This document shows positions 30,756 through 48,645 of a DNA stretch of 64,000 bases, piece after piece (position 1 is the stretch's first letter; every line of letters begins with the position of its first letter). Under the pieces are notes generated by a model. The model did not search any database and was not told the origin of the DNA. It saw only the letters and a list, made by a program, of their open reading frames with translations. This DNA comes from Candidatus Latescibacterota bacterium. GTDB taxonomy: Bacteria > Latescibacterota > CBDEFO01. The stretch lies in assembly GCA_965248755.1 (NCBI GenBank), contig OZ252149.1, positions 2,432,001-2,496,000 of the forward strand, read 5' to 3'. Position numbers and translations under genes: made by a program.

Positions 30756-32228
30756 ATGCAACACGAGAGTGACAAAAATCCCCCTGGCTTTGAACTTATG
30801 TGTACACTTCAAGGTGACGAGGAGCAGATCTCCTCTATCGCATGGGTATCAGATGCTCCAATGCTTGCCTCGGGATCATGGGACGAAACCGTTAGGCTAT
30901 GGGATGTGGAAAGTGGAGAACTTCGCCAAGTGCTCGGAGGTCTCTCCAATACCAACTATGTGTCATGGTCGCCTGACAGTCGAACGGTTGCCATATGGTA
31001 TAGCAACACTATTAAACTTTGGGATGTAGAGGCCAGGAAAATCCGCAGCCTGATTCGAGAGAGCTTCTCTGGTGTCAATAGTGTGGCATGGTCTCCAGAT
31101 GGACAGACACTTGCCTTTGGCAGTAGCGATGGCATGATCCGACTATGGGACGTGAAGGGTAGGAACGTCCGCCGCACATTTGAAGGACACTACAACGATA
31201 CAGTCAATAGTGTGGCATGGTATCCAGATGGACAGACACTTGCTTATGGTAGTAATAATGGCATTATCCGAATATTAAATGCCAAGACATGGAAGTTGCG
31301 CCGATCATTCGAAGGACACTACAACGATACAGTCAATAATGTGGCGTGGTCTCCAGATGGACAGACACTCGCCTCGCAAATCTCGCAAGGACATGATGCA
31401 TCCTCCTTGCCACAGTCCATCGAGCTTTGGAACGCCAAAACGGGACAGCGACTGAGTGTTCTCAAAGGATACAAGGGTCAGATCACTTCTACCTCCTTTT
31501 CTTCGGACTCTCGCCTTCTTGCCTCCAGATCCTATTACGGCAATCTCTGTCTCTGGCGCTGTGACACCTGGGAGAAAGTAGTGGTCATTAAAGAACCACA
31601 TATCCCGCCGTTTTCTGACTTTGCTTTCCATCCGAAGATGCCCATACTGGCTGCGGTCGCTGAAGCAGGTATTGTCATCCACATCTGGAACCTAGACATC
31701 GACGCCCTGCTGGATACAGACCACGCTGTTGACGCTAAGAGAGAACCCGGCATTCGGGTATCAAAAAAAGAGGGAAAGGACGTTGACCTGTCCAAAGGGC
31801 AGGAAGAGGACTATAAAAGATTTGAGTATAAGTGCCGTGACAAGGTCTATATCCCTGGCACTATCCCAATGAAGCGAAGCAATCTCATAGACGTTAATGG
31901 AAATGAGATAGGAATCGCAGATTACATTTTTGTCCTGTTTTTATCCCTTGTAGCGGAATTGCGGAAGAAAGAAGGCGGCTGGGTCCATGTACCCACGTTG
32001 ATGAATGATGGGAGAGTTACAAATGGATTGAAACCTCAGACTTTCAGCAATCTCAGGACACAGTTGAAGGGAAGCTTGTTGGACAAGGAGGTCTTGAAGT
32101 TCATCCAGAACGACGGATCTGGTAACTACCGTGTCTCTACCCATCCCGACTTTATCAGCTATGACAAGCAAAAACTGATCAATCACCCTAACCCTGATAT
32201 CAGAAAAGTTGCAGAGGAATTGCCTTAA
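30756..32228 (+). CDS. WD40-repeat protein with C-terminal putative winged-helix domain
   Basis: About seven WD40 repeats (VNSVAWSPDGQTLAFGSSDGMIRLWD); distinct 150-aa C-terminal domain. Confidence 0.85.
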   Translation: MQHESDKNPPGFELMCTLQGDEEQISSIAWVSDAPMLASGSWDETVRLWDVESGELRQVLGGLSNTNYVSWSPDSRTVAIWYSNTIKLWDVEARKIRSLIRESFSGVNSVAWSPDGQTLAFGSSDGMIRLWDVKGRNVRRTFEGHYNDTVNSVAWYPDGQTLAYGSNNGIIRILNAKTWKLRRSFEGHYNDTVNNVAWSPDGQTLASQISQGHDASSLPQSIELWNAKTGQRLSVLKGYKGQITSTSFSSDSRLLASRSYYGNLCLWRCDTWEKVVVIKEPHIPPFSDFAFHPKMPILAAVAEAGIVIHIWNLDIDALLDTDHAVDAKREPGIRVSKKEGKDVDLSKGQEEDYKRFEYKCRDKVYIPGTIPMKRSNLIDVNGNEIGIADYIFVLFLSLVAELRKKEGGWVHVPTLMNDGRVTNGLKPQTFSNLRTQLKGSLLDKEVLKFIQNDGSGNYRVSTHPDFISYDKQKLINHPNPDIRKVAEELP

Positions 32229-32240
32229 AGAGTTGAATCA

Positions 32241-32370
32241 TCACGCGGAGCTTTGTACGAGGATAGCCTCAGGCAGAAGACTGATTCTGGTATGACCCTT
32301 GGCGCTCTGCTTCATTTCTAGCTTCGACTTATCCCACAAAAGTACGCTTTGGGACACCAATCCGGGGTGC
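32241..32370 (-). repeat. LSR-tail / att-like junction repeat 1
   Basis: 130-bp ungapped homolog of 39232-39361 and 46828-46957; encodes HPGLVSQSVLLWDKSKLEMKQSAKGHTRISLLPEAILVQSSA*. Confidence 0.88.
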
Positions 32371-32421
32371 AATAAATAACAACGAGTTACGACAATTACT
32401 TCGTAGTCACTTTCTTTTTTT

Positions 32422-32592
32422 CTACTGTTTTTCTACTGTAAATTTCCCCAACCCCACGAACAACTGGTTATCCAGTCGCTCTGTCGCCTCTTGGTGAAAT
32501 TCCGGCATCAGGTGACCATACCGATCCAGGGTTGTTGTGATAGACGCATGACCAAGCTGTTTCTAGATGTACTTGGGACTTTCCCCTTGAGC
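32422..32592 (-). pseudogene. Tyrosine recombinase (phage integrase) C-terminal remnant
   Basis: Manual translation AQGESPKYI*KQLGHASITTTLDRYGHLMPE with the LGH...Y catalytic box and an internal stop. Confidence 0.85.
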
Positions 32593-32788
32593 GGCATGCT
32601 ATTACAACTATTAACTTGCATAAAAACTAAGGACACTATGAAACAGAATTACCCGATACTACACTTTTTGGAGAAGACCCAAATCATATTAAACCATTTC
32701 GCCTTGCTATGCGTCTAAAACAGGTGAAAGAAGGAGCGCTCTAAACAAATATGGTTGTACATAACCTACAAAACAAGGAGGAAAACCG

Positions 32789-33249
32789 ATGATCAAGCGC
32801 ACATCTGCCTTAGGAATTATTTCAGCGGCGCTATTTGCTCTCTACTGATGTGTAGAGAACGGAAGCCCTATTCCTACCGCCGATACGGAATCAGAAAGCA
32901 TAAACTGTGCTGCTCTTACTGGGGACGATACCGTTGAGCCCGTGGGCAGCCCTGCGACGCAAGTCGGAAACTTGGCAAGAATGGCTGCTTTCCTCGGCCT
33001 CTCCGAAGGCCAAGTAGATGCGTTCAAGGAAATCAGGGAAAACAGCCGAGAGGAAGGAGAGGCTCTCTTTGAGGAACTGAAGACATACGGAGCGTACAGA
33101 GAAGGAATCAGAACAGCCAGCAGGAATTACACCAGCAGGAAAACGAAGAGATATTAGCCCTCCTTGACGATGAGCAAAAGGCCAAATGGGAGGAATTTCA
33201 AACGAAAATGCGGGAAAGGCGGCAGGATAATATAGGAAGACACAATTAA
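32789..33249 (+). pseudogene. Spy/CpxP-like lipoprotein pseudogene
   Basis: AGGAGG RBS; signal peptide ends LFALY*C (stop in lipobox); LGLSEGQ and LLDDEQKAKW LTxxQ-like motifs in different frames. Confidence 0.65.
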
Positions 33250-33282
33250 GCACGCTACATTTTTCAAAGTAATTGAAGATCG

Positions 33283-33334
33283 GGGGGTCTAACGTCCGTC
33301 ATGTCGAATTCACAGACGTTACACCCCTTTTTTT
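33283..33334 (+). terminator. Intrinsic terminator
   Basis: GGGGTCTAACGTC...GACGTTACACCCC followed by T7. Confidence 0.6.
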
Positions 33335-33414
33335 CTCTTTCCCCAAGAAAGTTAAGTCTCTCCTGACAAAACGTATAATGTTGTGTCACTACTTTCTTTA
33401 AAGGAGGTCAAGCT

Positions 33415-35748
33415 ATGTATAGCTTCTCAAGAATCTCTCTGGCGAACGCAGCTATTCTGATCGCGCTTTTTGGTGCTTCCCCTTCTTCTGCTAAACAGCC
33501 GGTCATCAGTGCCCGTCCCTTAGGTATGGGAGAGACCTTCCTGGCGATAGCTGACGATGGCAACGCCCTGTTCTGGAATCCAGCAGGATTGCCCTCGTTG
33601 GGGCACCATGAGATTGTCAGCGGCTACACTGATCTCTTCGGAATCGGTATAAAGAATAACATCATAGGATACGTCTTCCCTATGGCGAACAACTATGCCC
33701 TTGGGTTTGACTGGGCACATTTAAGCTTTGAGGATACTGAATTAGGTTATAAGAAAGATAGCTTCAAGTTATCCTACGGGCATAGAGTCTGGCAGGAACT
33801 TTCCTTTGGCTCTGCTTTAAGATATATCACCACAGATGTGATTCTGGACTCATACTCGTTGGGGAAAGCTTCTGGATGGGGATTGGATATGAGTTTTTTG
33901 TATGCCCCTGTCAAGTGGCTGAAATTGGGGATGGTGGTTCAGGATGTGACAGATACCAACGTGGAGTATGATGACGGGAGTACGGAGGTAATTGATCCCA
34001 GATCGTTCCAGTTCGGGACGGCCTATCGGCCGATAGACGATCTGACGGTGGCCCTGGATGTGGACGATCAACTCCATTTCGGAGGGGAATACTGGCTCAG
34101 CAACAACATGCTGGGACTGAGAGGTGGTCTACAGAAGGACCTGGATACCTCGGAGCCGATGACGTATTCGGGCGGAGCGAGCATCCGCTATAAGCTGTTC
34201 CAGTTCGATTACGCCTATGTAATACCGCCGACTCTGCCCTCCAGCCATCGCTTCTCCCTGTCTCTCTCCTTCAACCTGTATCCTTCGATGGTGCGGATCA
34301 CGGAGACAGAGATCAATAACCTGTTCCCGGCGTTCCACAAGCGCTATGGCGTGCATCCACTGGGGAATGTGAAATTGGTCAACAGGGACGACAAACCCTA
34401 TCAGACTATGGTAAGCTTCTATATCCCCAAGCTGATGGATGCCCCTACAGAACAGCAGGTTATCATCCGGCCGAAGGAGACGAAGGAGGTTGGGCTTAAA
34501 GGGGTCTTTTCCAGTTCCATCACCGATTTGACCGAGGATATACTGACGCAGGCGGAAGTCAGGGTCTCCTATACGACAGAGCGCAAGACGAGGTCGGACA
34601 GGGAGTCGGCCAGTTTCTATGTCTACAGTCGCAATGCGACTACCTGGGACGATCTGGGGAAGGCGGCGGCCTTTATCACATCCAATGACCCGATCATAGC
34701 TGGATTCGCCCGGCCCACGTTGGTCTCGTTCGAGGAGGAGATCAAGAACCTGGGGCGTGGCAGTAGGAATCTGATGAGGGCGATGGTGCTCTTCGATGCG
34801 GTGAACGAGTACGGGGTGCGCTACATCTCCGATTCCAACAATCCCTACTCCCGAATATCTGCGGACAAATCTGCAGTGGACAACATTCAGTATCCTGTCG
34901 AGGTGTTGAAGAAGAAGTCGGGGGACTGCGACGATCTCACCGTGCTCTATTGCGCTCTTTTGGAGAACGTCGGTATTCCCACGGCGTTAGTGGATGCCCC
35001 TGGACATATCTATATGATGTTCGACAGCGGTGTTCCTATCCAAAAGGCCTACAGTCTCCCTATAGGCGAGAAACTGTATGTAGTTCGGGACGGCAATATT
35101 TGGATCCCTGTGGAGATCACCTTGTTCGGGAAATCGTTTATCGAGGCCTGGCGGTCCGGGGCAGGTGAATCCGCAAGTCTCTTGGAGGAGGGCAGACTCA
35201 GGGTCGTTGACACTTCGGATGCATGGCAGGAGTATGAACCTTCCCCTCCTAAATTTGAGGTGGAGATTTCCGTACCAACCAAGGAGCATATAACGGGAGT
35301 TTTCTCCTCAGATCGGTCGGGCTTGAAGGAGATGATGAATGCCTTTATAGAGCGCACCCACCTTGGGCCTCTGGGGGAGAGTCCAGAAGATTTTGATCTG
35401 CACTTTAACCTTGCCCGGATCTACACAGCGATCCGTGAGTACGAGCGTTCGATCTCCGAATATCAACGGCTCTTAAAGTCAGGTGCGGATCCTGCTCGTA
35501 TATATAACAATATAGGGAGACCCTACTTTTTGAAAGGAGAAGTAAGAGAGGCAGCTCACAGCTTCAAGCAGGCTATGGACTTGGATCCGACCGATGAGGG
35601 GGTCAAAAACAACTTCGAGTTGGCAATGTCATTTTTGGGGGAGGAAGAGCGGATAGCCTTTGCAAGAGAGATCGGCGCATCCTTGCCTGAGGGGCTCAAG
35701 GCAGCGGACTTTGAGGTGGATGAGGAAAGCATCTACTGGAGGGAGTAG
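33415..35748 (+). CDS. PorV/PorQ-like beta-barrel fused to transglutaminase-like and TPR domains
   Basis: SARPLGMGETFLAIADDGNALFWNPAGL; GDCDDLTVLYCALLE...PGHIY; C-terminal TPR. Confidence 0.8.
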   Translation: MYSFSRISLANAAILIALFGASPSSAKQPVISARPLGMGETFLAIADDGNALFWNPAGLPSLGHHEIVSGYTDLFGIGIKNNIIGYVFPMANNYALGFDWAHLSFEDTELGYKKDSFKLSYGHRVWQELSFGSALRYITTDVILDSYSLGKASGWGLDMSFLYAPVKWLKLGMVVQDVTDTNVEYDDGSTEVIDPRSFQFGTAYRPIDDLTVALDVDDQLHFGGEYWLSNNMLGLRGGLQKDLDTSEPMTYSGGASIRYKLFQFDYAYVIPPTLPSSHRFSLSLSFNLYPSMVRITETEINNLFPAFHKRYGVHPLGNVKLVNRDDKPYQTMVSFYIPKLMDAPTEQQVIIRPKETKEVGLKGVFSSSITDLTEDILTQAEVRVSYTTERKTRSDRESASFYVYSRNATTWDDLGKAAAFITSNDPIIAGFARPTLVSFEEEIKNLGRGSRNLMRAMVLFDAVNEYGVRYISDSNNPYSRISADKSAVDNIQYPVEVLKKKSGDCDDLTVLYCALLENVGIPTALVDAPGHIYMMFDSGVPIQKAYSLPIGEKLYVVRDGNIWIPVEITLFGKSFIEAWRSGAGESASLLEEGRLRVVDTSDAWQEYEPSPPKFEVEISVPTKEHITGVFSSDRSGLKEMMNAFIERTHLGPLGESPEDFDLHFNLARIYTAIREYERSISEYQRLLKSGADPARIYNNIGRPYFLKGEVREAAHSFKQAMDLDPTDEGVKNNFELAMSFLGEEERIAFAREIGASLPEGLKAADFEVDEESIYWRE

Positions 35749-35783
35749 GGATCGCTGATTAATGTTGATAAAAGGAGCAAAAG

Positions 35784-38700
35784 ATGCACATGGACATTTG
35801 TCGGATAACGACGCTAACGGCGGTCATCGCCGTTGTCATCTTCGCCACAACTGCAAGTGCGGCAGAGTGGGAAAGCTTCACCACCGAAGATGGCCTGGCG
35901 GACAACACGGTCACATCCATCTTAGAGGACAGTGAAGGCAACTTGTGGTTTGGAACTTTAGGCGGTGTGAGCCGCTATGATGGGACGTGGACAACTTACA
36001 CCATAGAAGATGGTCTGGCAGATGACCTTGTCTTGACAATCTTAGAGGATCAAGACGGCAACCTCTGGTTTGGCACTAGAGAAGGCGTAAGCCGTTATGA
36101 TGGGCAAAGCTGGAGGACCTTCACTACTGAAGACGGTGTGCCAGACAACATAGTCAATGCTATCTTAGAAGACAGAGAGGGCAACATGTGGTTTGGCACT
36201 AGAGAAGGCGTAAGCCGCTATGATGGGGAAAGATGGACAACCTACACTACAGCAGATGGTCTGGCGCACAATGAGGTCCATTCGATCTTAGAGGATAGTG
36301 AGGGCAACCTGTGGTTTGGCACTCGTAGAGGCGCAAGTCGCTATGATGGGGAAACGTGGAATAGGGACACAATAAACGGTCACCTGGCCAACGATGTCCA
36401 GGCGATCCTAGAGGATAGAGATGACAACTTCTGGTTTGCAACTTCGGGAGGAGGCGTAAGCCGGTACGATGGCGAAACGTGGACGACATACGATAAGGAA
36501 AATGGTCTGGTGAACGACCGGGTCAGTGCGATCTTAGAGGATAGTGAGGGCAACCTGTGGTTTGGACATAGCTTGGATGTAAGGAGCGGAACTGGGGGCA
36601 TCACTCGCTATAACGGGCAGAGATGGACAACCTACACCACAGATGATGGGCTGGCGGACAACTGGGTCAGAGCGATCTTAGAGGATAGTGAGGGCAACCT
36701 GTGGTTTGGCACTAATGGGGGCGCGAGCCGCTATGATGCAACGTGGACGACATACACCATAGAAGATGGACTGGGACACAACCAGGTCTGGACGATCTTA
36801 GAGGATAGTAGAGAAAACCTGTGGTTTGGAACTAGAGAGAGTGGCGTGAGTCGCTACGATGGCAAGATATGGACTACCTTCACCACAGCAGATGGCCTGG
36901 CAGGCAACTGGATCAGGACTATCTATGAGGATCGAGAGGGCAACCTGTGGTTTGGAACTAGAGAAGGCGTAAGCCGCTATGATGGCCAAAGCTGGAAGAC
37001 CTATACCAGAGACAGCACGAATGGTGGTCTGGCATTAGACATTGTCAATGCGATACTGGAGGATACAGCGGGGAATCTATGGTTTGGAACTGAGATGAGA
37101 GGCGTAAGTCGATATGATGGGACAACATGGATAACATACACTGAAGATGATGGCTTGGCACACAACAGGGTCAATGAGATCTTGAAGGATAGTGAAGGCA
37201 ACCTATGGTTTGGAACCAGTGAGGGCGTTAGCCGCTATGATGGGGAAATTTGGAAAACCTACGGCGAGATTGATGGACTCGTTAATAACTCGGTCATGGT
37301 GATCATGGAGGATAGAGAGAGCAACTTATGGTTTGGTACTGGATCAGGTCGAATTGATGGGGGCATAAGCCACTATGATGGGGAGACGTGGACGACATAT
37401 ACCAGAGAAGATGGGCTGGCAAACGACTTTGTCAATGCGATCATGGAGGATAGTGGGGGCAACTTGTGGTTTGGAACTCAAGCAGGCCTGAGCCGCTTTG
37501 ACGGGGAGAGATGGATTACGTATTCCGCAGCTGATGGCCTGGCAGACAGCAGGGTTAATGCAATCTTGGAGGATAGTGACGGCCACCTGTGGTTTGGAAC
37601 TGGTGGAGGGGTAACCAGATACAGAGTTGAAAGAACGCCGCCCAACACATTTATATTAGATGGTCCAGGAGAAATAATCGGCGTCCCACAAGCTTTCTTC
37701 GAATATAATGGTGGGGATAGGTATTCACCAGACGAAGATGTGCAATTTGGGCATGCCATCAAGAACGATCAAGACAAGCCCATTCAAGCCGATTGGTCGA
37801 GTTTTACAGATCACACCTCTACCCTTACAGATCCCCTTCCCAACGGCACCTATACGTTCTACGTACGAGGAAGGGACGAAGTGGGTAACATCGATCTTTC
37901 TCCTGCCAAAAGGAGCTTCACTGTCGAATTAACCCCGCCGATAGTGGCGATCAGTTCCCCATCGAGCAACGAAATTACTCATGGTAATGTAAACATCCGG
38001 GGCTCGGCCTTTGACAACTCCGATATCCCCAACTTTGGGAGCTATACGTTGGAATACGGGAAAGGATCGGATGAGGACAAGATATCAGAATGGCTTAGTA
38101 TAAGGGATAGAGCGGTTAAGCCTGTCGTAAATGACCTTTTAGGCATGTGGGACACCGAGGGGCTATTCGGCACCTATGTCCTCAGGCTTAGCGCTGTGGA
38201 CGGCTTCGATCACAGGAGCAAGTATGCCATCACCGTCCACGTGGTTGCGGCAGCCGTTGAGGTAGATCACAGTAGTGGAGGACATATCACCGATTCAGCG
38301 AGCAACGTGGATCTCTACATTCCCCCCAATGGCATTCCCAAGAGCACGCAGGTGACGATCACTCCCATTGCGCTTGAAGGTGTCGCAAAGCCCTCTGCTC
38401 TGAATTTGCACCTTACTGGGATGGCATACGACATCGGTCCGAAGGATCTTGCGGTGCTGAAACCTGTAACCTTTACGATGTCCCTTGATAAAGTTGAGAT
38501 AGCTGAGGTGCCAGATCTTGACAAGTTGGCAATCTTTACCCGGTCATCTTCGGACAATCCCTGGGAAAGAGTCGGTGGCACGGTCGATGAGAGGACAGGG
38601 AAGATGATAGTAGCCCTCACACACTTTGGGAGATTCGCGGTTATGGAGGATCTTTCTGAGGAAGAAGGAAAGCTTTCCATTTCGGATGTGAACTGTCAGC

Positions 38701-38978
38701 CGAGGGTGTTCTCCCCGGAGGGAGGAGCATATGACACCAAGACCACGTTATCCTTTAATCTTGGAAGAAGGTCAGAGGTTACAGTGAAGGTCTACGATGT
38801 CTCAGGACGTTTCAAGAGGAGGTTGCTCAAGGATAGAACGATGAATCGGGGTAGCAACGCGGTAGTCTGGGATGGCAGGGATCATCATGGGAAGGTAGTA
38901 GTCAATGCACTGTATGTGGTGGCTGTGGAGGCTAATGGGAAGGTGGAGACGAAGACGGTAGTAGTATTGAACAAGTGA
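35784..38978 (+). CDS. Secreted beta-propeller (two-component regulator propeller repeats) with FlgD-Ig-like tail
   Basis: About 14 repeats of DGLA.N.V.AILED.EGNLWFGT..GVSRYDG; VWDGRD C-terminal motif; signal peptide. Confidence 0.88.
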   Translation: MHMDICRITTLTAVIAVVIFATTASAAEWESFTTEDGLADNTVTSILEDSEGNLWFGTLGGVSRYDGTWTTYTIEDGLADDLVLTILEDQDGNLWFGTREGVSRYDGQSWRTFTTEDGVPDNIVNAILEDREGNMWFGTREGVSRYDGERWTTYTTADGLAHNEVHSILEDSEGNLWFGTRRGASRYDGETWNRDTINGHLANDVQAILEDRDDNFWFATSGGGVSRYDGETWTTYDKENGLVNDRVSAILEDSEGNLWFGHSLDVRSGTGGITRYNGQRWTTYTTDDGLADNWVRAILEDSEGNLWFGTNGGASRYDATWTTYTIEDGLGHNQVWTILEDSRENLWFGTRESGVSRYDGKIWTTFTTADGLAGNWIRTIYEDREGNLWFGTREGVSRYDGQSWKTYTRDSTNGGLALDIVNAILEDTAGNLWFGTEMRGVSRYDGTTWITYTEDDGLAHNRVNEILKDSEGNLWFGTSEGVSRYDGEIWKTYGEIDGLVNNSVMVIMEDRESNLWFGTGSGRIDGGISHYDGETWTTYTREDGLANDFVNAIMEDSGGNLWFGTQAGLSRFDGERWITYSAADGLADSRVNAILEDSDGHLWFGTGGGVTRYRVERTPPNTFILDGPGEIIGVPQAFFEYNGGDRYSPDEDVQFGHAIKNDQDKPIQADWSSFTDHTSTLTDPLPNGTYTFYVRGRDEVGNIDLSPAKRSFTVELTPPIVAISSPSSNEITHGNVNIRGSAFDNSDIPNFGSYTLEYGKGSDEDKISEWLSIRDRAVKPVVNDLLGMWDTEGLFGTYVLRLSAVDGFDHRSKYAITVHVVAAAVEVDHSSGGHITDSASNVDLYIPPNGIPKSTQVTITPIALEGVAKPSALNLHLTGMAYDIGPKDLAVLKPVTFTMSLDKVEIAEVPDLDKLAIFTRSSSDNPWERVGGTVDERTGKMIVALTHFGRFAVMEDLSEEEGKLSISDVNCQPRVFSPEGGAYDTKTTLSFNLGRRSEVTVKVYDVSGRFKRRLLKDRTMNRGSNAVVWDGRDHHGKVVVNALYVVAVEANGKVETKTVVVLNK

Positions 38979-39231
38979 TTTCGGGACAGGACATACTGAA
39001 GGGATGAGGTCACAGGGAGTGTGCTGATGATAAATAGTTAAGTGCCCACGAAGTAAGTTTGCGTCACTTGTAATTATAGGAACTAAAACTGAAGTGCTAA
39101 AATGTTGAGACACCTGAAGCGATCTTTCACCTACGAGGGAAGTATATGAAAACTTCGAGTATCACCTCTGTGTCCGTCTGGTTCTTTTAGCAGACACCGT
39201 TGACAACGTTGACGCAATGAAAGGAAAAGCG

Positions 39232-39361
39232 TTAGGCGGTGCTTTGTACTGGGATAGACTCAGGAAGAAGACTGATTCTTGTATGACCTGTTGCTACTCG
39301 TTTCATTTTCAGCCTTGACTCATCCCACAAAAGTACGCTTTGGGACATCAGCCCGGGGTGC
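39232..39361 (-). repeat. LSR-tail / att-like junction repeat 2
   Basis: Encodes HPGLMSQSVLLWDESRLKMKRVATGHTRISLLPESIPVQSTA*; weak similarity to the LSR gene continues to about 39400. Confidence 0.88.
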
Positions 39362-39487
39362 GAAATTCGTTCTAGAAACTTACTGCCCCTAAAGTTGGTA
39401 TAGCGTAAATGATCAAATAGAAGAAGCCCGCCATTTCTGACGGGCTGTGTGTCCAATCTTGTACGGTGCACAAAAAGGTCTGGAAAT

Positions 39488-40906
39488 CTACCGCATCAAC
39501 ACAAGCTTCCTTATCTTCACAAATTCTTCCGATCCATCCGTCTCCAACCGATACACATAGATTCCGCTGGCAAGACTCTTTCCACTATCATCTGTTCCAT
39601 CCCAGACTGTAGAGTGCCTTCCCGCATCCATCTGCTCATGTACCAATGTTGCAACCTTCTGTCCTATCATATTATAGATGGATACATCAACGTGGCTTTG
39701 AGCGGGAAGGTCGTAATGGATCACCGTCTCCGGGTTGAAGGGGTTAGGGAAGTTTTGATGCAATGCATAGGTGTCAGGAACATCGGAAACGCCATCAGAT
39801 TGGGGAATAACTACACTAAAAAGACCTTCGTTCAATTGAGCAGAGACTAGATCAATCCCCGATAGATCCACTCGGGGATCAATCTCACCAATAGTCTCAA
39901 TCTGCGAATCTACAGGCTCAAATATAATCTCACCAATCCTACCGCTGCCTTCAACTGATTCTACACCAGCAAACGATAGCCTTAATCTGCCATCTTGAGC
40001 ATTGTTGGCGAAAAGATAATCAGAGGTCAAGTGGGATGTTCTGGCATCTACGGCTTTGAGTTTGGCCGGATCAAAAGATAGTTCAAGTTGACCCGACAGG
40101 ACACCGTCCATTTCATCTATGAGGACAGGAACGACAAAGCGCCCATCAGGCAAAGCCTCTACATCACCTAAACTGATAATCCTTTTGGCAAGTACAGTCT
40201 TAGGGATGCCTCCTGTCTCAGCAGGAAACTGAGTTAATTGCCCAACAACGAACCTGAGTATCAAAGAGCCGTCAAAGGGACTTATAGTTCCGTCTCCACT
40301 GACATCAGCTGCTATAGTGTCAGAAATTACAAAGAGACCTACTGTGGATCTAAGCACCAAAGCAGCATCAAATGCCATCACCCTTCCGTTGTGGCTAACA
40401 TCTCCTACCAATCCAGAAACCTGCACAGATCCGCCCTGTAAAGCTGCCGCGGGATCGCCCTCGTTGAAGAAGAATCTCTCAAAAACCAATGCTGTAGAAT
40501 CGCCGATGACTGCCGATTCGGAGACTGCAAATCTGATAAAGATAAGGTCTCCCGATCCTGATAATATGTCGACTCCCATAGTCGCCATTGCAATCTTGAC
40601 GGTGTCTATAAGTGTTCCCATGCCCGTTACGACCGTGTCAGCTATCGCCCAACCTTCGCTCAGTGTCCCTCCCAACGCTACTTCTATTGCCTCTATTACA
40701 TCTGAATCGTAAGTGATATTCATTTGGACTGAGATAATTTCAAGCCCTGTTACGTCATCTTTGATAAGGACAGGAACTGAAACCGTATCGCCGATAGAGA
40801 TAGATGTGTCCGGAAGACTAACTGAGACTGTAACTACTTGAGAAGAAACACGCGCATTCAAAGCGACCAGCAGGATCAGAGCAGTAGAGAAAATTATATG
40901 CCTCAT
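39488..40906 (-). CDS. Secreted cohesin-dockerin-cohesin protein with FlgD/T9SS-type C-terminal domain
   Basis: Dockerin-like GDVSHNGRVMAFDA...ADVSGDGTISPFDG; QNFPNPFNPET...SGIYVYRL tail; AGGAGG RBS. Confidence 0.85.
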   Translation of the reverse strand: MRHIIFSTALILLVALNARVSSQVVTVSVSLPDTSISIGDTVSVPVLIKDDVTGLEIISVQMNITYDSDVIEAIEVALGGTLSEGWAIADTVVTGMGTLIDTVKIAMATMGVDILSGSGDLIFIRFAVSESAVIGDSTALVFERFFFNEGDPAAALQGGSVQVSGLVGDVSHNGRVMAFDAALVLRSTVGLFVISDTIAADVSGDGTISPFDGSLILRFVVGQLTQFPAETGGIPKTVLAKRIISLGDVEALPDGRFVVPVLIDEMDGVLSGQLELSFDPAKLKAVDARTSHLTSDYLFANNAQDGRLRLSFAGVESVEGSGRIGEIIFEPVDSQIETIGEIDPRVDLSGIDLVSAQLNEGLFSVVIPQSDGVSDVPDTYALHQNFPNPFNPETVIHYDLPAQSHVDVSIYNMIGQKVATLVHEQMDAGRHSTVWDGTDDSGKSLASGIYVYRLETDGSEEFVKIRKLVLMR

Positions 40907-41024
40907 TTTGAGTCCTCCTTTGGTCTATAAAATACTGACTATGACTATACTACTGAAGCCCGGTTGAATTTATGTCACTTCCCCATCTGTGGGCTGAAGA
41001 TGGCTTTATGATGTCGAAATGAGC

Positions 41025-43442
41025 CTATCTCATCAAGATCAGCTTTCTCGTTTTCACGAATCCATCCGCCTCTATCCGATACAGATACACGCCGCTGGCA
41101 AGACTTCTTTGGTTGTTATCTTTGCCATCCCAGACTATAGAGTGTCTGCCTGCATCCATCTCCTTATCCATCAATATCGCTACCCTCTGTCCTATCATAT
41201 TATAGACAGATATGTCAACGTGGCTTCGGAGCAGAAGGTCGTAATGGATCACCGTCTCAGGATTAAACGGATTGGGATAGTTCTGATACAATGAATAGCT
41301 GTCAGGGATATCGGAGATCGCTTCAAATTGGGGAATAACAACACTGAAGAGCCCTTCGTTCAATTGAGCGGAGAGTAGAGCAATCTCACTGATAGCCTCA
41401 ATTTCCGAATCTACCGGCTCAAATATAATCTCTGCGATCCTACCGCTGCCATGAACCGATTCTACCCCGGCAAACGATAGCTTCAATCTGCCATTTTGAG
41501 CATTATGGGCGAAAAGATAATCAGAGGTCAAGTCAGATGTTCTGGCATCTACGGCTTTGAGTTTGGTCGGATCAAAAGACAGTTCAAGCTGACCTGACAA
41601 TACACCGTCCATTTCGTCTATGAGAACAGCGACAGTAAAGCGTCCATCAGGCAAAGCCTTTATGTTACCTAAACTGATAATCCTTTCGGCAAGTACGACC
41701 TTAGGAGTACCAGCAGGAAATACGCTTATTTTCCCAATAACAAACCTGAGTATCAACGACGCATCAAAGGCACTTATAGTGCTATCTCCACTGACATCCG
41801 CTGCAACAGTGTCAGAGATTGCAAAGAGACCAACTGCGGATTTAAGAACCAAAGCAGCATCAAATGCCGTTACCTCTCCATTGCGGCTGACATCTCCTAC
41901 TAACCCAGTAACTCGCACAGACCCATCCGCTGTAATTGCCGCTGGATCGCCTTCGTTGAAGAAGAATCTCTCAAAGACCAATGCTGTAGAATCACCGATG
42001 ACTGCCGAATCGGAGACTACAAACTTGATAAAGACAAGATTTCCAGACCCTGATAATGTGTCAGGTCCCGGAGCTACCATTACAATCTTGACTGTGTCTG
42101 TAGATGTTCCAATGCCTGTTGTGACTGTGTCATCTTTCACCCAACCTACGGTCAGTGTGTCTCCTAACTCTATCGCTACTACCTTTATTACATTTGAATC
42201 GTAACTGATATTCATCTGGGCTGAGATAATTCCAAGCCCTGTCACGTCCTCTTCGATAACAACAGGGACTGAAAGCGTATCACCGATAATAGTAGAGATA
42301 GATGTGTCCGGAAGACTGACTGGAACAGGTCCCTCCACCTTACGTATCCGGTGATTGTTTGTATCCCCGATATAGATATTGCCCGATACATCCACGAATA
42401 CGCCATGAGGACCATTCAAACTTGCATTGGTAGCTTGACCTCCATCACCGGAAGATCCAGCAGCGCCATTTCCCGCCACGGTAGAGATGTTGCCAGCTGC
42501 ATCCACTTTACGTATCCGGTGATTGACAAATTCCGCAGTATAGATATTGCCCAGTCCATCAACGAATACGCCAAGAGGATTATTCAAGCTCGCACTGGTA
42601 GCTGGACCTCCATCACCGGAAAATCCAGCAGTGCCATTTCCTGCAACGGTGGAGATGATGCCCGACGTATCCACCTTACGTATCCGGTGATTGTTCTGAT
42701 CCGCAATATAGATATTGCCCGATCCATCCACGAATACGCCAAAAGGCACATTCAAGCTCGCACTGGTAGCTGGACCTCCATCACCGGAAAATGCAAAAGT
42801 GCCATTTCCTGCCACGGTATTGATGATGCCCGACGTATCCACCTTACGTATCCGGTGATTGTTTGTATCCCCGATATAGATATTGCCCGATACATCCACG
42901 AATACGCCACGAGGATTATTTAAACTCGCACTGGTAGCTGGACCTCCATCACCGGAAAATCCCTGGGTGCCATTTCCTGCCACGGTGGAGATGATGCCTG
43001 AAGTATCCACCTTGCGTATCCGGTGATTGGTCTCATCCGCAATATAGATATTGCCCAATCCATCCACGAATACGTCACGAGGACCATTCAAACTTGCACT
43101 GGTAGCTGGACCTCCATCACCGGCAAATCCAGCAGTGCCATTTCCCGCCACGGTGGAGATGATGCCCGAGGTATCCACTTTACGTATCCGGTGATTTCCA
43201 AATTCCGCAGTATAGACATTCCCGAATCCATCCACGAACGTGCCCATAGGCTTATTCAAGCTCGCACTGGTAGCTGCACTTCCATCACCGGAAAATCCCT
43301 GGGTGCCATTTCCTGCCACGGTGGAGATGTCTCCCGGTGCAGCAGCAACGGAAGGGACAAAACCAAACATCCAAAAGCCCAAAACCAAAATACTAATCAT
43401 GCTCTCTCTAAAGTAATTCTTTCTCATAGTGTACACCCCCAT
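41025..43442 (-). CDS. NHL-repeat + cohesin-dockerin-cohesin + FlgD/T9SS-tail surface protein
   Basis: Six ISTVAGNG...GDGGPATSASLN.P...NHRIRKVD repeats; start may be 43427. Confidence 0.88.
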   Translation of the reverse strand: MGVYTMRKNYFRESMISILVLGFWMFGFVPSVAAAPGDISTVAGNGTQGFSGDGSAATSASLNKPMGTFVDGFGNVYTAEFGNHRIRKVDTSGIISTVAGNGTAGFAGDGGPATSASLNGPRDVFVDGLGNIYIADETNHRIRKVDTSGIISTVAGNGTQGFSGDGGPATSASLNNPRGVFVDVSGNIYIGDTNNHRIRKVDTSGIINTVAGNGTFAFSGDGGPATSASLNVPFGVFVDGSGNIYIADQNNHRIRKVDTSGIISTVAGNGTAGFSGDGGPATSASLNNPLGVFVDGLGNIYTAEFVNHRIRKVDAAGNISTVAGNGAAGSSGDGGQATNASLNGPHGVFVDVSGNIYIGDTNNHRIRKVEGPVPVSLPDTSISTIIGDTLSVPVVIEEDVTGLGIISAQMNISYDSNVIKVVAIELGDTLTVGWVKDDTVTTGIGTSTDTVKIVMVAPGPDTLSGSGNLVFIKFVVSDSAVIGDSTALVFERFFFNEGDPAAITADGSVRVTGLVGDVSRNGEVTAFDAALVLKSAVGLFAISDTVAADVSGDSTISAFDASLILRFVIGKISVFPAGTPKVVLAERIISLGNIKALPDGRFTVAVLIDEMDGVLSGQLELSFDPTKLKAVDARTSDLTSDYLFAHNAQNGRLKLSFAGVESVHGSGRIAEIIFEPVDSEIEAISEIALLSAQLNEGLFSVVIPQFEAISDIPDSYSLYQNYPNPFNPETVIHYDLLLRSHVDISVYNMIGQRVAILMDKEMDAGRHSIVWDGKDNNQRSLASGVYLYRIEADGFVKTRKLILMR

Positions 43443-43586
43443 AGTTTTCGGCTGACGGCATAGTCCGTCGGGTTTGACAGGATATTGACTGTACTAAAGC
43501 CTGAGCGAATTTGCGTCACTTTCCTTTGCGTAGGCTGAAGATGGCAAATATACGTTTGAATGTAACCCCCTAGCAATGAAAGGAAC

Positions 43587-46274
43587 TTATCTCATCAAGA
43601 TCAGCTTCCTCGTTTTCACGAATCCATCAGCGTCTATCCGATACAGATACACGCCGCTGGCAAGACTTCTTTGGTTGTTATCTTTGCCATCCCAGACTAT
43701 AGAGTGTCTGCCTGCATCCATCTCCTTATCCACCAATATCGCTACCCTCTGTCCTATCATATTATAGACAGATATGTCAACGTGACTTCGGAGGGGAAGG
43801 TCGTAATGGATCACAGTCTCAGGATTGAACGGATTGGGATAGTTCTGATACAATGAATAGCTGTCAGGAACATCGGAAACGTCTTCAGATTGGAGAATAA
43901 CTACACTAAAAAGACCTTCGTTCAATTGAGCAAAGATTAGATCAATCCCTCTAATAGCCTCAATTTCCAAATCGACAGGCTCAAATATAATCTCTGCGAT
44001 CCTACCGCTGCCTTGAACCGATTCTACGCCGGCAAACGATAGCCTTAATCTTCCATCTTGCGCGTTATGGGCGAAAAGATAATCGGAAGTCAAGTCTGAT
44101 GTCATAGCATCTACGGCTTTGAGTTTGGCCGGATCAAAAGACAGTTCAAGCTGACCTGACAATACACCGTCCATTTCGTCTATGAGAACAGCGACAGTAA
44201 AGCGTCCATCAGGCAAAGCCTTTATGTTACCTAAACTGATAATCCTTTCGGCAAGTACGACCTTAGGAGTACCAGCAGGGAATACGGTTATTTTCCCGAT
44301 AATAAACCTGAGCGTCAAAGAGGCATCAAAGGCACTTATGGTGCTATCTCCACTTACGTCCGCTGTTATAGTGTCAGAAATTACATAGAGACCGACTGTG
44401 GATTTAAGTATCAAAGCGGCATCAAATGCTGTTACCTCTCCGTTGCGGCTGACATCTCCTACTAACCCAGTAACTCGCACAGACCCGTTCTGTGTAATTG
44501 CCGCTGGATCGCCTTCGTTGAAGAAGAATCTCTCAAAGACCAATGCTGTAGAATCACGCAAGACTGCCGAACCAGAGACTATAAACTTGATAAGGACAAG
44601 ATTTCCAGATCCTGATAATGTGTCGGGTCCTGGAGCCGCCATTACAATCTTGACTGTGTCTATAGATGTTCCAATGCCTGTTGCGACTGTGTCATCTGTC
44701 ACCCAACCTTCGGCCAGTGTCCCTCCCAACGCTACCTCTATTGCCTTTATTACATTTGAATTGTAACTGATATTCATCTGGGCTGAGATGATTCCACTCC
44801 CTGTCACGTTCGCTTCGATCACAACAGGGACTGAAAGCGTATCACCGATAATAGTAGAGATAGATGTGTCCGGAAGACTGACCGGAATCGGAGTAAAGGT
44901 AAAACCGCTAAAGAGCGTGTCTGCCTGACCGTCGGAATTTGTGACTATCACGTCCACAGAGCCACCAGGATGAGGGGGTGTGTTGGCAGTAATGATGCTA
45001 TCCGACGATACGACCACATTTGTAGCTGCACTATCACCGAAAGTAACAGTCGCTCCACTTCTGAAATCGCGCCCCGTTATCGTCACAGACGTACCGCCCG
45101 ATTGTGTGCCGGAAGTGGGACTAATAGATGTTACAGCAGGTGCTGGGAATCCCTCTACCTTACGTATCCGGTGATTGAACGAATCCGCAATATAGATATT
45201 GCCCAATCCATCCACAAATACGCCCTGAGGAGCATTCAAACTTGCACTGGTAGCTGGACCACCATCACCGGAAAATGCTGCAGTGCCATTTCCTGCTACG
45301 GTATTGATGATGCCCGACGTATCTACCTTACGTATCCGGTGATTGCCCTTATCCGTAATATGGATATTGCCCAATCCATCCACGAATAAGCGAATAGGCT
45401 GATTCAAACTGGCACTGGTAGCTTGACCACCATCACCGGAAAATGCTGCAGTGCCATTTCCTACTACGGTATTGATGATGCCCGACGTATCCACCTTACG
45501 TATCCGGTGATTGTTAAAATCCGCGATATACATGTTGCCCAATCCATCCACGAATACATCAGTAGGACTAAACAAGCTCGCACTGGTAGCTTGACCAGCA
45601 TCACCGGAAAATGCAAAAGTTCCATTTCCTGCCACGGTATTGATGATGCCTGACGTATCCACTTTACGTATCCGTTGATTTTCATTATCCGCTATATAGA
45701 TATTGCCCGATCCATCCACGAATAAGCCAGAAGGAGAATCCAAACTGGCACTGGTGGCTGGACCGCCATCGCCCCCAAAAGAACCGTTGACACCACCAGC
45801 CCCATTTCCTGCCACGGTGGAGATGATGCCCGACGTATCCACCTTACGTATCCGGTGATTGCCCGTATCAGAAATATAGATAACCCCCAATCCATCCACG
45901 AATACGTCATAAGGGAATCTCAAGCTCGCACTGGTAGCTGGACCACCATCACCGGAAAATGCTTCAGTACCATTTCCTGCCACGGTGGAGATGATGCCCG
46001 ACGTATCCACCTTACGTATCCGGTGATTAGAATGTTCCGCAATATAGATATTGCCCGCACCATCCACGAATACGCCCAAAGGACTATTCATACTTGCACT
46101 CGTAGCTGGACCACCATCACCGGAAAATCCAGCAGTGCCATTTCCTGCTACGGTGGAGATGTCTCCCGGTGCAGCAGCAACGGAAGGGACAAATCCAAAC
46201 ATCCAAAAGCCCAGAACGAACACGCTAATCAGAATCTCGTTGAAGTGATTCTTTTTCATGGAGTACACCCCCAC
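43587..46274 (-). CDS. NHL-repeat + IPT/TIG + cohesin-dockerin-cohesin + FlgD/T9SS-tail surface protein
   Basis: Paralog of 41025-43442 with extra PAVTSISPTSG...GGTSVTITG IPT/TIG domain. Confidence 0.88.
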   Translation of the reverse strand: MGVYSMKKNHFNEILISVFVLGFWMFGFVPSVAAAPGDISTVAGNGTAGFSGDGGPATSASMNSPLGVFVDGAGNIYIAEHSNHRIRKVDTSGIISTVAGNGTEAFSGDGGPATSASLRFPYDVFVDGLGVIYISDTGNHRIRKVDTSGIISTVAGNGAGGVNGSFGGDGGPATSASLDSPSGLFVDGSGNIYIADNENQRIRKVDTSGIINTVAGNGTFAFSGDAGQATSASLFSPTDVFVDGLGNMYIADFNNHRIRKVDTSGIINTVVGNGTAAFSGDGGQATSASLNQPIRLFVDGLGNIHITDKGNHRIRKVDTSGIINTVAGNGTAAFSGDGGPATSASLNAPQGVFVDGLGNIYIADSFNHRIRKVEGFPAPAVTSISPTSGTQSGGTSVTITGRDFRSGATVTFGDSAATNVVVSSDSIITANTPPHPGGSVDVIVTNSDGQADTLFSGFTFTPIPVSLPDTSISTIIGDTLSVPVVIEANVTGSGIISAQMNISYNSNVIKAIEVALGGTLAEGWVTDDTVATGIGTSIDTVKIVMAAPGPDTLSGSGNLVLIKFIVSGSAVLRDSTALVFERFFFNEGDPAAITQNGSVRVTGLVGDVSRNGEVTAFDAALILKSTVGLYVISDTITADVSGDSTISAFDASLTLRFIIGKITVFPAGTPKVVLAERIISLGNIKALPDGRFTVAVLIDEMDGVLSGQLELSFDPAKLKAVDAMTSDLTSDYLFAHNAQDGRLRLSFAGVESVQGSGRIAEIIFEPVDLEIEAIRGIDLIFAQLNEGLFSVVILQSEDVSDVPDSYSLYQNYPNPFNPETVIHYDLPLRSHVDISVYNMIGQRVAILVDKEMDAGRHSIVWDGKDNNQRSLASGVYLYRIDADGFVKTRKLILMR

Positions 46275-46827
46275 AATTTCCTTATGAATTAAAATCGATA
46301 TCTCTCAACAGCATAGCCCTAACGCATCAGTGGTTAGATATCTTATATCGGCAACAATTTAGTAACTATCCGATAAGACCTTTCGATGCAATAAGCGTGT
46401 TGGGGAAATAACCCGAGCTGATAAATAATCTTTTCAAAACGAGCATGGACTTTGTACAGATCAAATCCGATCCATTGCCTTACCACCAATCTGCTTTTTG
46501 CTCGGATCAGGATATGGAAACACCGCAAAAGATATTACCATAAATATATGCAAATTCTAAATCTTTGTCAAATTGTTTGCGATTATATCTTTATATTTTA
46601 CAATTCTTTATTATTTGTCCACTATTCTACCAATACTACAAAAGGATATGTAAAGTTTGCTAGGAAGGCGCCAAAGCTTTAATTATACCTATCGCTAATT
46701 ACCAAAACGAAAGCGATCGGTTTCTGACAGTCTCTGTTTTAATACTGGCTAAGCTTTTGTGCAAAAGATTTTTGGAAGACGAACGGAAAGAGAAGGTTGC
46801 TGAGTGTTCCCGTGTGAGTAGAAAGCG

Positions 46828-48519
46828 TCAAGCAGGGATTTGTACTGGGATAACCTCAGGAAGAAGAGTGATTCTGGTATGACCTTTTGCTACTCGTTTA
46901 ATTTCCAGCCTTGACTTATCCCACAAAAGTACGCTTTGGGACATCGATCCGGGGTGCCAGATACACGAATCCCGACTAACCTTTTCCCCCAAAGTTGGTA
47001 ACTTGGGAAACATTGTCGAGTTTCCAAATAGAGCTAAGCGAATTTCCTGAGGTGTCCAGACAATCAGGTTGATCTGAAGCATTATCAACTCTTTCTTCTC
47101 CTCAGGTGTTGCTTCGGTAAAAAGCTCGGAGAAGGTCGTGAGCCTACCTTTCAAGGTATTGGCATTTACGACCTTTCTCTTTGCCTCTATCATCTCCATC
47201 TCCAGCTTCTGTATCTCTTCACCCAACTGTTCTTTTCGTTCCTCCAACTCAACAATCTTCTGACTCACTGATTTGATCTGCACCTTCCCATCGGCTAGGC
47301 TTTCAACTAAGGTGTTGATTCTCTGCTCTATGCTGCCCCGGTGTTCGGACAGCCGATCCTTTGCCTCTGTCAATTCCTGTAGAAAACCCGAAGATTGGGC
47401 GGTAGCATTTTGGACCATCTCCGATACAAGGTTGGGGTCTTCCTTCAGCTGTACCAACCGTTTTACAATCACATCTTCTAATGCTGCTGCGGGAACAGAG
47501 CTCATCCGGAACTCTTTATTTCCAAGATGCTGCGTTTTCGTACAGGTATAATAGAAGTAAGGTTTCCTCTCGTGGTTGTAAACAAAGTAGGGTGTCATAA
47601 AGGCATTGCACTCCCCACATCGGACAAGCCCCTGCAGAATAAAGAGGTGTTTGGTATGTTTCCTTCCCCTGGACTGCTTCACCTGATTGGACTGAATGAT
47701 CCTCTGCACCTTTTCAAACAATTCCTCTGGCACGATGGGCTTATGCTTCCCGTCGTAGCAATTGCCTTTGTGAACCACTTTGCCGATGTAATAGGGGTTT
47801 TGAAGAACCCTGCTGACGTGAGTGTCTATAAACTTCGTCCCGCCGTGTACCTGCCCTCGGCGTGATGTATAGGATTTGGTCCGGTAGCCCTTGGCATTGA
47901 TGATATTGGCAACCCTCATAAAGGATTTCTCTTTCACATAGGTTTCAAAGATCAACATCACGAGTTTCTTTTCTTCCTCATTCACTTTAAGGATTCCCGG
48001 ATTGTCAGGATCAATGTCATAACCGAGAATCTGTCCACCACTACTCAGTCCCTGTTCTGCTCTCCACTGCATCTTCTCCCTGGTGCGGCTTGCTGTCTGC
48101 TCCCGTTCAAGTTCCGCAGCAGCAAGAGTAATTTTCAGGGCAAAGCGACCTATAGGTGTGGAGGTGTCCCAATTCTCATTAAGTGAGATAAACGTAACTT
48201 CGTATTCTTCCAGTAGCTCGTGGAAATGGTAGAAGTCCATTAACGAACGACTAATCCGATCTATTTTGGTGCAGAGAATAGCGTTGACCTTTCCATTCTT
48301 AATATCTTGGATCATATGTTGGTATTCAGGTCTGTCTGTGTTCTTGCCTGACTTTCCTTCCTCACGATACGTGGCAACAGTTCTCCAATCTTCTCCTGTC
48401 GAGCTGTTCTTGATCTCCACATACTTTTTCAGGATGTCAAGCTGTGTGTCTAGAGAACCATCTTTTTTATGTGCTTGAAGCTCAGTCGAGACCCTAACAT
48501 AGAGTCCACACTTCTTCAT
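46828..48519 (-). CDS. Large serine recombinase 2 (intact)
   Basis: YVRVSTELQ, IDRISRS, recombinase domain, LQGLVRCGEC Zn ribbon, coiled coil; AAGGAG RBS; last 42 aa encoded by junction repeat 3 (46828-46957). Confidence 0.95.
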   Translation of the reverse strand: MKKCGLYVRVSTELQAHKKDGSLDTQLDILKKYVEIKNSSTGEDWRTVATYREEGKSGKNTDRPEYQHMIQDIKNGKVNAILCTKIDRISRSLMDFYHFHELLEEYEVTFISLNENWDTSTPIGRFALKITLAAAELEREQTASRTREKMQWRAEQGLSSGGQILGYDIDPDNPGILKVNEEEKKLVMLIFETYVKEKSFMRVANIINAKGYRTKSYTSRRGQVHGGTKFIDTHVSRVLQNPYYIGKVVHKGNCYDGKHKPIVPEELFEKVQRIIQSNQVKQSRGRKHTKHLFILQGLVRCGECNAFMTPYFVYNHERKPYFYYTCTKTQHLGNKEFRMSSVPAAALEDVIVKRLVQLKEDPNLVSEMVQNATAQSSGFLQELTEAKDRLSEHRGSIEQRINTLVESLADGKVQIKSVSQKIVELEERKEQLGEEIQKLEMEMIEAKRKVVNANTLKGRLTTFSELFTEATPEEKKELIMLQINLIVWTPQEIRLALFGNSTMFPKLPTLGEKVSRDSCIWHPGSMSQSVLLWDKSRLEIKRVAKGHTRITLLPEVIPVQIPA

Positions 48520-48645
48520 TGCTCACTCCTTATCGTCAAGTCTGTTCTAGAAAGTATTTTACTATTAGAAAAGTGAGAATAACAATTTGTTTTATCAATA
48601 GGTTAAATATAATTCAAGCCAACGCTCAAGTCAAGCAAAATCAGG

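Follow-up and report, generated by a model that had tools for sequence, protein, structure and literature searches.

The window analysed here is a 64,000-nucleotide stretch of the genome of a Candidatus Latescibacterota bacterium (assembly GCA_965248755.1, contig OZ252149.1, positions 2,432,001 to 2,496,000 of the forward strand), and the subject is a set of three repeats within it, together with the large serine recombinase (LSR) genes and the blocks of other genes that accompany them. The source genome, labelled G000, is a single contig of 4,540,735 bp. Its sister genome, from the same genus, is labelled G001, labels of the form L0xx denote loci of other genomes or contigs, those of the form P0xxx denote proteins, and the repeat of approximately 130 to 140 bp is termed the C module. 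Coordinates are those of the window unless another sequence is named. The repeats form one three-copy direct-repeat family with 78 to 87 % identity to the reference copy (repeat finder, window), spaced at 6991 bp and then 7596 bp, and the last of them is the 3' end of the recombinase gene LSR2.

32235-32375, minus strand: repeat R1, a detached C module (repeat finder and alignment), with core TTGCACCCCGG at 32362-32372, 25-mer at 32332-32356 and tail at 32244-32369
39226-39366, minus strand: repeat R2, a detached C module (repeat finder and alignment), with core TCGCACCCCGG at 39353-39363, 25-mer at 39323-39347 and open 42-codon tail at 39235-39360
39364-39400, minus strand: LSR remnant at R2, approximately 37 bp of a 3' end, frame-shifted, reading TACCAACTTTAGGGG... 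(alignment)
46822-46962, minus strand: repeat R3, the C module fused to LSR2 (repeat finder, alignment), with core TGGCACCCCGG at 46949-46959, invariant 25-mer at 46919-46943 and tail codons at 46831-46956
46828-48519, minus strand: LSR2 (P0001), an intact large serine recombinase of 563 amino acids with Resolvase, Recombinase and Zn_ribbon_recom domains (Pfam)

All three repeats contain the invariant GCACCCCGG-N5-TGTCCCAAAGCGTACTTTTGTGGGAT on the minus strand, and in the alignment similarity collapses upstream of GCACCCCGG. In each of them a 42-codon frame is open, free of indels and closed by a stop at the identical position, and R3 alone is continuous with an intact recombinase, the last 42 codons and stop of LSR2 (46828-46956) falling within it. 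The initial annotation, made from the letters of the sequence alone, had described three co-oriented repeats with an invariant dyad and an open 42-codon frame, only the third being fused to LSR2, and the repeat finder, the alignment and the translation bear out each of these points. The LSR remnant, a detail absent from the initial annotation, sits upstream of R2, is homologous to LSR2 at 46960-47000 (alignment) and has a hairpin resembling an intrinsic terminator immediately upstream of it, and R1 lies 7 bp from the stop of a convergent WD40 gene. No fourth copy was found in the complete G000 contig, where the real matches have E values from 7e-76 to 2e-32 and three other rows have E>1. Logan contigs from four runs of the only sample that contains the region, mapped on 31500-48700, break inside each repeat (32355, 39344, 46942/46914), and the joints listed for them all lie within internal propeller or NHL repeats. 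No circles, empty sites or repeat-to-repeat joints were seen in these contigs, which end within the repeats and give no verdict on excision.

The repeat could be an independent small gene, RNA or regulatory element, such as a micro-open reading frame starting at an internal Met or a terminator hairpin, that merely stands beside LSR genes. Most copies do have an ATG at tail codon 16 or 20 and the 25-mer can fold into a hairpin, but the Met is missing in R3 and in several clusters, conservation begins exactly at the LSR joint, and the loop of the hairpin is invariant as well, a sign of DNA recognition by a protein. Neither Rfam (gathering threshold, whole window) nor ARAGORN identified a known RNA or tRNA at the repeats, and Rfam at E-value thresholds, applied to 31900-32700 and to L026, L029, L030, L038 and L041, found nothing at them. 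An independent element is thus extremely unlikely.

The position of the joint is marked by both the proteins and the DNA. When 106 motif-bearing proteins were classified by the sequence upstream of the tail, Trp stood at the boundary in all 27 LSR-linked copies, and the boundary residue in the 59 copies with at least 12 unrelated upstream residues was W in 36, R in 16 and another residue in 7. As Trp is fixed in the LSR-linked and variable in the unlinked copies, the first two bases of its codon would come from the upstream partner. Six joints in two species (tRNA-Arg/LSR1-C of G000, described below, tRNA-Arg/LSR remnant of G001, R1, R2, R3 and the G001 copy G001b) all break just after ...GTGC. 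The LSR 3' ends of G000 and G001 share 53 % nucleotide identity upstream of the core and 33 % in their last 60 nucleotides, the identity from TGGCACCCCGG onward is 87 %, and the blastn match between the two genomes (91 % over 633 nucleotides) stops at 46961. Because conservation and all six joints break there, the predicted crossover is the Trp codon next to CCGGGGTGC, within the LSR frame and where the initial annotation had placed it. A crossover in the 25-mer dyad was rejected on the same evidence.

What lies beyond the joint is a tail that LSRs of different kinds have in common. Among 1.84 billion representatives, a tail profile built from ten translated copies picked out 116 protein clusters (E<=1e-3), each of them a short open reading frame (ORF) with the motif near its C-terminus, and a search limited to longer proteins gave 22 matches, six of which have LSR domains. 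At least three LSR C-terminal types run in frame into W-(L/H)-P-G-x-x-S-Q-S-V-L-L-W-D...K-G-H-T-R-I, the subtypes of the tail are mixed between the different LSR types, and the tail is found across several phyla. Within the phylum of the source genome a 24-mer of the module was present in two of 168 genomes, G000 and G001, with no hits for the reversed control; the exact 21-mer is also found in a Syntrophales metagenome-assembled genome (MAG), an unclassified MAG and four peat metagenome contigs. In viral contigs a degenerate tail pattern gave four loci, all chance matches without the module.

Coding tests were made over 11 DNA copies of the tail. Pairwise differences in tail codons 15-31 number 276, 263 and 531 at codon positions 1, 2 and 3. 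In a six-frame test of these 11 non-independent copies, the tail frame alone was free of stops (0/11) and had the lowest ratio of nonsynonymous to synonymous differences (pN/pS) of the six, 0.42; the antisense frame that shares its third positions had 0.50 with stops in six of the 11 copies, and the other four frames had 1.07-1.18 with stops in 6 to 11. For the window copies and G001b, the corresponding ratio of substitution rates (dN/dS) was 0.2-0.3 when R1 was compared with the others, and the closer copies gave 0.65-1.0 with one another. To judge from these comparisons, the tail evolves like a translated peptide, in support of the initial annotation. A conserved and apparently selected tail that is common to several LSR lineages is what is new here.

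A second LSR gene, LSR1, is broken, and its parts lie inside and outside the window.

8144-9290, minus strand: LSR1, a second, P0124-like LSR, truncated by an insertion sequence (IS) after its 384 N-terminal residues
6873-8143: the IS interrupting LSR1, 1.27 kb (megablast)
G000 1635693 to approximately 1636190, outside the window: LSR1-C, the C-terminal half of LSR1, running antisense into tRNA-Arg(tct)
G000 1635655-1635731: tRNA-Arg(tct), overlapped by the convergent LSR remnant

A megablast search of the genome with the IS gave 179 rows; dozens of the copies are identical, most of the first 40 rows listed having 100 % identity. The remnant on tRNA-Arg(tct) ends ...IKIALYGRPPEIGLPSLSESEIRSQTSVWHARQDSNLQPQA, and the severed 3' end of LSR1 reads ...SVWHARQDSNLQPQA through tRNA-Arg. 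Aligned to the metagenomic homologue P0124, LSR1 accounts for residues 1-113 and the tRNA-Arg remnant for residues 110-266; they are 804 kb apart on the same strand, and ACTAAC occurs at both LSR1 break points beside IS-type terminal repeats. As the halves are complementary and ACTAAC stands at both breaks, the two are, on this sequence evidence, halves of one gene, and the split appears to imply a large IS-mediated rearrangement of the chromosome.

The tRNA tip is matched in the repeats. Each of them begins with 11 nucleotides that mimic the 3' tip of tRNA-Arg in antisense, TGG (Trp) being antisense CCA, and the core is TGGCACGCCCGG at tRNA-Arg(tct) and TGGCACCCCGG in the repeats. The 25 nucleotides before the tRNA-Arg core, which are the LSR1 3' end, match the C arm in inverted orientation at 15-16 of 25 positions, where shuffling gave 9.0 +/- 1.6 matches and reached 16 or more in 0.1 % of 5000 trials. 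This symmetry is what would be expected of an attP site with arms flanking the core. The G001 sequence is homologous to the G000 tRNA-Arg locus only as far as the tRNA tip. Beyond the tip of tRNA-Arg(tct) comes an approximately 80 % homologue of the sequence that follows R2 in G000, a unit comprising the 37-bp LSR remnant in reverse complement, a terminator and a cohesin gene. Taken together, the G001 and R2 joints indicate that units of one kind have different partners in the two species, the genuine tRNA tip in G001 and, in G000, the tip mimic carried by a C module. A proposal that G001a is a hybrid site without a left arm was rejected, a diverged arm with a 1-nucleotide insertion being present by eye.

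These joints also bear on whether the repeats are random deletion remnants of three once-complete LSR genes, with no meaning as sites. The additional 37 bp of LSR sequence at R2, the retention of LSR residues 445-560 only in G001b and the abundance of IS elements and miniature inverted-repeat transposable elements (MITEs) in the region are all compatible with decay of that kind. R1, L026-L031 and dozens of metagenome clusters, however, all end at the same nucleotide, unlike the outcome of random deletion, the identical break point joins a real tRNA, and the shuffling of tail subtypes among LSR lineages is a further point against such remnants, which are very unlikely.

By its domains LSR2 is a member of the large serine recombinase family, and catalysis between attP and attB is putative. 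The resolvase catalytic domain (PF00239, E 1.2e-34) spans residues 6-157, with the YVRVST motif at residues 7-12 and a presumed serine nucleophile, and is accompanied by PF07508 (Recombinase) and PF13408 (zinc ribbon), with long helices predicted at high confidence at 362-449. In an AlphaFold2 prediction from a 101-sequence alignment, LSR2 has a confident body with a mean predicted local distance difference test (pLDDT) score of 88, a predicted coiled coil at approximately 362-449, a predicted disordered linker at 512-526 and a tail predicted as a short helix (528-535) and a beta-hairpin (537-543/547-553) with pLDDT 66-75. The best NCBIfam match is CcrB with 189 bits, and CcrC gives 162 bits, the cut-offs being 900; LSR2 is accordingly CcrB-like by score, below every curated cut-off, and not a Ccr equivalog.

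The search for LSR2 homologues gave 606 at E<=1e-20, of which the best 120 (42-67 % identity) were examined. Except in LSR2 itself, the C tail is not encoded contiguously in any of these best 120, and the last 45 residues of 42 of them match antisense translations of G000 tRNAs at E<1e-3, as against a single sense match; a further 35 have weaker antisense-tRNA matches. The tRNAs concerned include Asn, Gln, Met, Glu and Val, plus tmRNA, the ending W-(L/H)-(P/R) occurs in 30 of the 120, and 14 of those 30 go on with (D/G)-S-(N/D). The matches of these tails to antisense tRNAs indicate that the family reads antisense into tRNA genes. The tail swap proposed in the initial annotation, with the tail supplied by what lies beyond the crossover, is supported by these antisense-tRNA tails and by the C tail of the other LSR lineages. 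Two LSR2 homologues from metagenomes, P0002 and P0199 (62 % and 48 % identical), have instead of the tail a C-terminal extension of approximately 150 residues with a ParB-type helix-turn-helix (PF17762), which may be read-through across the attachment (att) site into a ParB-like gene. ParB belongs to the integration module of the Dehalococcoides islands discussed below. The ORFs around LSR2 gave no Pfam, NCBIfam or PHROG matches except transposases, one of which, of the IS256/Mutator family, lies directly behind LSR2 at 48768-50012.

The sequence between and around the repeats is occupied by the following cargo.

39367-46821: island X (block 2), cohesin, dockerin, NHL and TIG proteins with type IX secretion system sorting tails (Pfam)
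39488-40906, 41025-43442 and 43587-46274, all minus strand: the three genes of island X
32376-39225: island Y (block 1), two genes (Pfam)
33415-35748, plus strand: TPR/transglutaminase gene (Pfam)
35784-38978, plus strand: Reg_prop propeller gene (Pfam)
9291-32234: presumed island Z, approximately 23 kb between LSR1 and R1, with a WD40 protein, sigma-factor/GNAT duplicates and a Na+/H+ exchanger, its limits following from a layout of C module, cargo and LSR

No recombinase domain or LSR body was found between the repeats by Pfam or by the LSR search, in keeping with the initial annotation, which had reported no intact recombinase in the 7.0- and 7.6-kb blocks of surface-protein genes. Island X has lost its recombinase save for the remnant of approximately 37 bp, and in island Y no recombinase remnant was detected. 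An orthologue of block 1 adjoins a C copy in G001 with 82-83 % identity; block 2 was not found as a unit in G001, and the G001 matches to its parts are scattered paralogues with 78-85 % identity. Base composition does not distinguish the blocks.

The initial annotation had taken the blocks for integron-like cassettes or satellites accreting at the recombinase gene. As a full explanation, this would have a resident integrase, LSR2, at whose 3' end new units dock, and blocks 1 and 2 would be recombinase-free cassettes with one C site each, captured and excised today by recombination between C modules. The layout LSR-C-block-C-block-C holds, LSR2 is intact, and a second recombinase-free unit, with AbiE and TOTE defence genes, lies between two C copies in the peat contig L028. 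Against such a platform, R2 retains an LSR remnant, the stack extends to LSR1, with its severed half, and to tRNA-Arg, a unit like block 2 sits on the real tRNA tip in G001, block 1 is shared with G001, and most family members are found integrated at tRNAs. The arm of LSR2 also fits C poorly, and the blocks are multi-gene, in both orientations and with their own terminators. Integrons likewise have a recombinase adjoining an array of repeat-delimited gene blocks, but the recombinase here is of the serine type, with no tyrosine IntI, no attC hairpin sites and no promoterless cassettes driven from Pc; the blocks hold two to three genes in either orientation with a terminator, and the repeats are 130-bp modules of coding type. 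A platform of this kind is unlikely: repeat-bracketed blocks without a recombinase are present, as had been noted, and their fit is with decayed islands in a tandem stack that has tRNA-Arg(tct) as its anchor, not with accretion at a resident recombinase gene.

The window is probably a tandem stack of LSR-made integrative islands that inserted at the 3' tip of tRNA-Arg(tct), most likely four islands anchored at tRNA-Arg, two of them without a recombinase. In each island the recombinase gene would lie at the tRNA-proximal end, convergent with the tRNA, and its frame would cross the crossover. The attP site would consist of the LSR 3' end, a core of 11-12 nucleotides equal to the antisense tRNA tip (TGG for CCA) and a distal arm. 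The C module would be the core plus the distal arm, its first approximately 36 bp serving as the recombinase-binding arm, including the invariant TCCCAAAGCGTAC, and the remainder completing the 42-codon tail. When integrated at the tRNA, the enzyme would end in a junk antisense-tRNA tail, and when next to a C module, in a circle or beside a neighbouring island, it would end in the conserved tail. The order would be as follows.

tRNA-Arg > / < LSR1 - island Z - R1 / island Y - R2 / island X (37-bp LSR remnant) - R3 / < LSR2 - island W

An IS would then have split LSR1, and a later IS-mediated rearrangement would have carried the tRNA-proximal half 804 kb away. The order and timing of these events, and any present-day activity, are deduced from the arrangement.

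Several observations weigh against the stack. ARAGORN found no tRNA within the window, and the link to tRNA-Arg rests on rejoining the two distant gene halves. The 3' arm of LSR2 itself is a poor mirror of the C arm, with 11 of 25 positions matching, and the closest relatives of LSR2 run into tRNA-Asn, Gln or Met, so the cognate enzyme of these sites may be one other than LSR2. A C module belonging to island W is missing. Multigene families typical of the lineage are found in the blocks, those of block 2 being dispersed in G001, and, as block 1 and its repeat are common to G001, the stack may be old, fixed and immobile. The non-independence of the 11 tail copies tempers the pN/pS values. In addition, a sense-oriented tRNA T-arm precedes C in the Syntrophales MAG (L027, L041) and in three protein clusters, which read KGSNPT/RLPG across the joint, and the model does not explain it.

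The nearest described system is that of Dehalococcoides. McMurdie et al. 2011 (PMC3146451) describe tandem ssrA-specific islands with a CcrB-like LSR, DsiB, encoded at the island edge and convergent with the tRNA-like target. Some of the tandem islands lack an integration module and are discussed there as cis-mobilizable elements formed by accretion. The authors also speculate that DsiB reaches full function only as part of the circle or next to an island that provides its 3' fragment, so the tail-swap idea is already in print for DsiB (PMC3146451). As in that account, the LSR frame crosses the island boundary here (LSR2 stops in R3, LSR1-C inside antisense tRNA-Arg), and tandem islands delimited by repeats of the target 3' end include some without a recombinase (blocks 1 and 2). 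The differences are that the target here is the tRNA-Arg(tct) tip and for DsiB the ssrA T-loop, that the repeat here is approximately 130 bp and for DsiB 20 bp, and that DsiB tails are reported as divergent, whereas the tail here is conserved over at least three LSR lineages and several phyla. Nor was the dsiA/recF/parB/mom integration module of those islands found beside LSR2 in domain and profile scans of the neighbours for DsiA, ParB or Mom. No other description of such an arrangement was found in the literature on serine recombinases/integrases, att sites and genomic islands, which was partly represented by titles and abstracts.

Staphylococcal cassette chromosome (SCC, SCCmec) islands, integrated by CcrAB or CcrC at the rlmH 3' end, have LSRs of the same broad clade, CcrB being the best NCBIfam match of LSR2. 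SCC islands stack in tandem with direct repeats of the target 3' end between them, recombinase-less members included. Their ccr genes, however, are internal to the element and clear of the att site, and their target is a protein gene; LSR2 scores below the Ccr cut-offs, and a Pfam scan showed no rlmH context around it. Cis-mobilizable elements and the accretion of integrative and conjugative elements, of which there are streptococcal examples, resemble the window in having blocks without a recombination module, flanked by att-type repeats, in tandem with an element that retains one; those elements use tyrosine integrases and short repeats. The structure here fits, and mobilization in cis is putative. 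The integrases of archaeal viruses of the Sulfolobus spindle-shaped virus (SSV) type have attP inside the int gene, so that integration alters the recombinase gene itself, as it would here. They are, in contrast, tyrosine recombinases whose gene is split in two, whereas here the last approximately 42 codons would be swapped and the catalytic body would stay intact.

The 42-residue tail might be a functional, interchangeable C-terminal module that reports the topological state of the element and switches the activity, stability or directionality of the enzyme, the last two of which the initial annotation had suggested; the proposal is tentative and rather doubtful. An LSR would then gain the conserved tail only when it abuts a C arm, on the excised circle or beside another island, and would lose it to an antisense-tRNA tail once integrated. 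If so, such a switch would have left its signature in the purifying selection on the tail and in the occurrence of the tail in at least three LSR lineages from several phyla. LSR genes that span their own attachment site, noted once for Dehalococcoides, would on the present evidence be a wide family trait, antisense-tRNA endings being found in most of the 120 best LSR2 homologues when the weaker matches are included, and in one sub-family the exchanged tail would not be junk but a conserved, selected 42-residue module carried on the distal att arm. The old speculation becomes testable as the behaviour of the recombinase on the circle versus in the chromosome. For annotation, small "hypothetical" ORFs such as the detached C-module tails would mark island joints, and LSR C-termini in databases would often be target-derived. 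The stack would also explain the stacking of surface-protein gene blocks behind a tRNA in Latescibacterota.

The C modules of other genomes have neighbours of several kinds. In the peat contig L028 (376-5643, overlapped by L029 and L031), two diverged C modules bracket a 5-kb recombinase-less unit that carries AbiEi/AbiEii and a TOTE-type archaeo-eukaryotic primase (AEP)-helicase, and upstream of the unit L029 has a sub-threshold match to group II intron domain V at 1661-1736 (37 bits, the gathering score being 40). In the Syntrophales MAG (L027 290-660, L041 4380-4745), a unit of approximately 370 nucleotides precedes both C copies and consists of tandem ATTTCCAACC boxes, a long perfect-stem hairpin and a terminal sense-oriented tRNA-like T-arm; it has no Rfam match, and in L027 it stands directly after tRNA-Glu and its terminator. 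In the unclassified MAG (L026 2452-7641), the C module lies just after pstB-phoU and is followed by a 610-amino-acid unknown protein, a tyrosine integrase and an ArdC-like anti-restriction protein, so the island beyond that C module looks conjugative.

Elsewhere in the window, duplicated gene sets in 17264-27065 were seen from equal ORF sizes alone, namely pairs of 123- and 120-amino-acid ORFs at 18048-18829 and 20390-21171, 231-amino-acid GNAT-type ORFs at 18964-19659 and 25664-26359, and sigma-70 region-4 ORFs at 19751-20371 and 26451-27065. The segment 51466-53090 was considered as the far end of the island and rejected; it is an IS with a DDE_Tnp_1_4 transposase, and an internally deleted MITE derivative of it is present in G001 (L015 9582-9848). 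A MITE-like repeat of approximately 360 bp lies at 22177-22535, and eight copies of it, approximately 91 % identical, occur in 182 kb of G001 contig C3.

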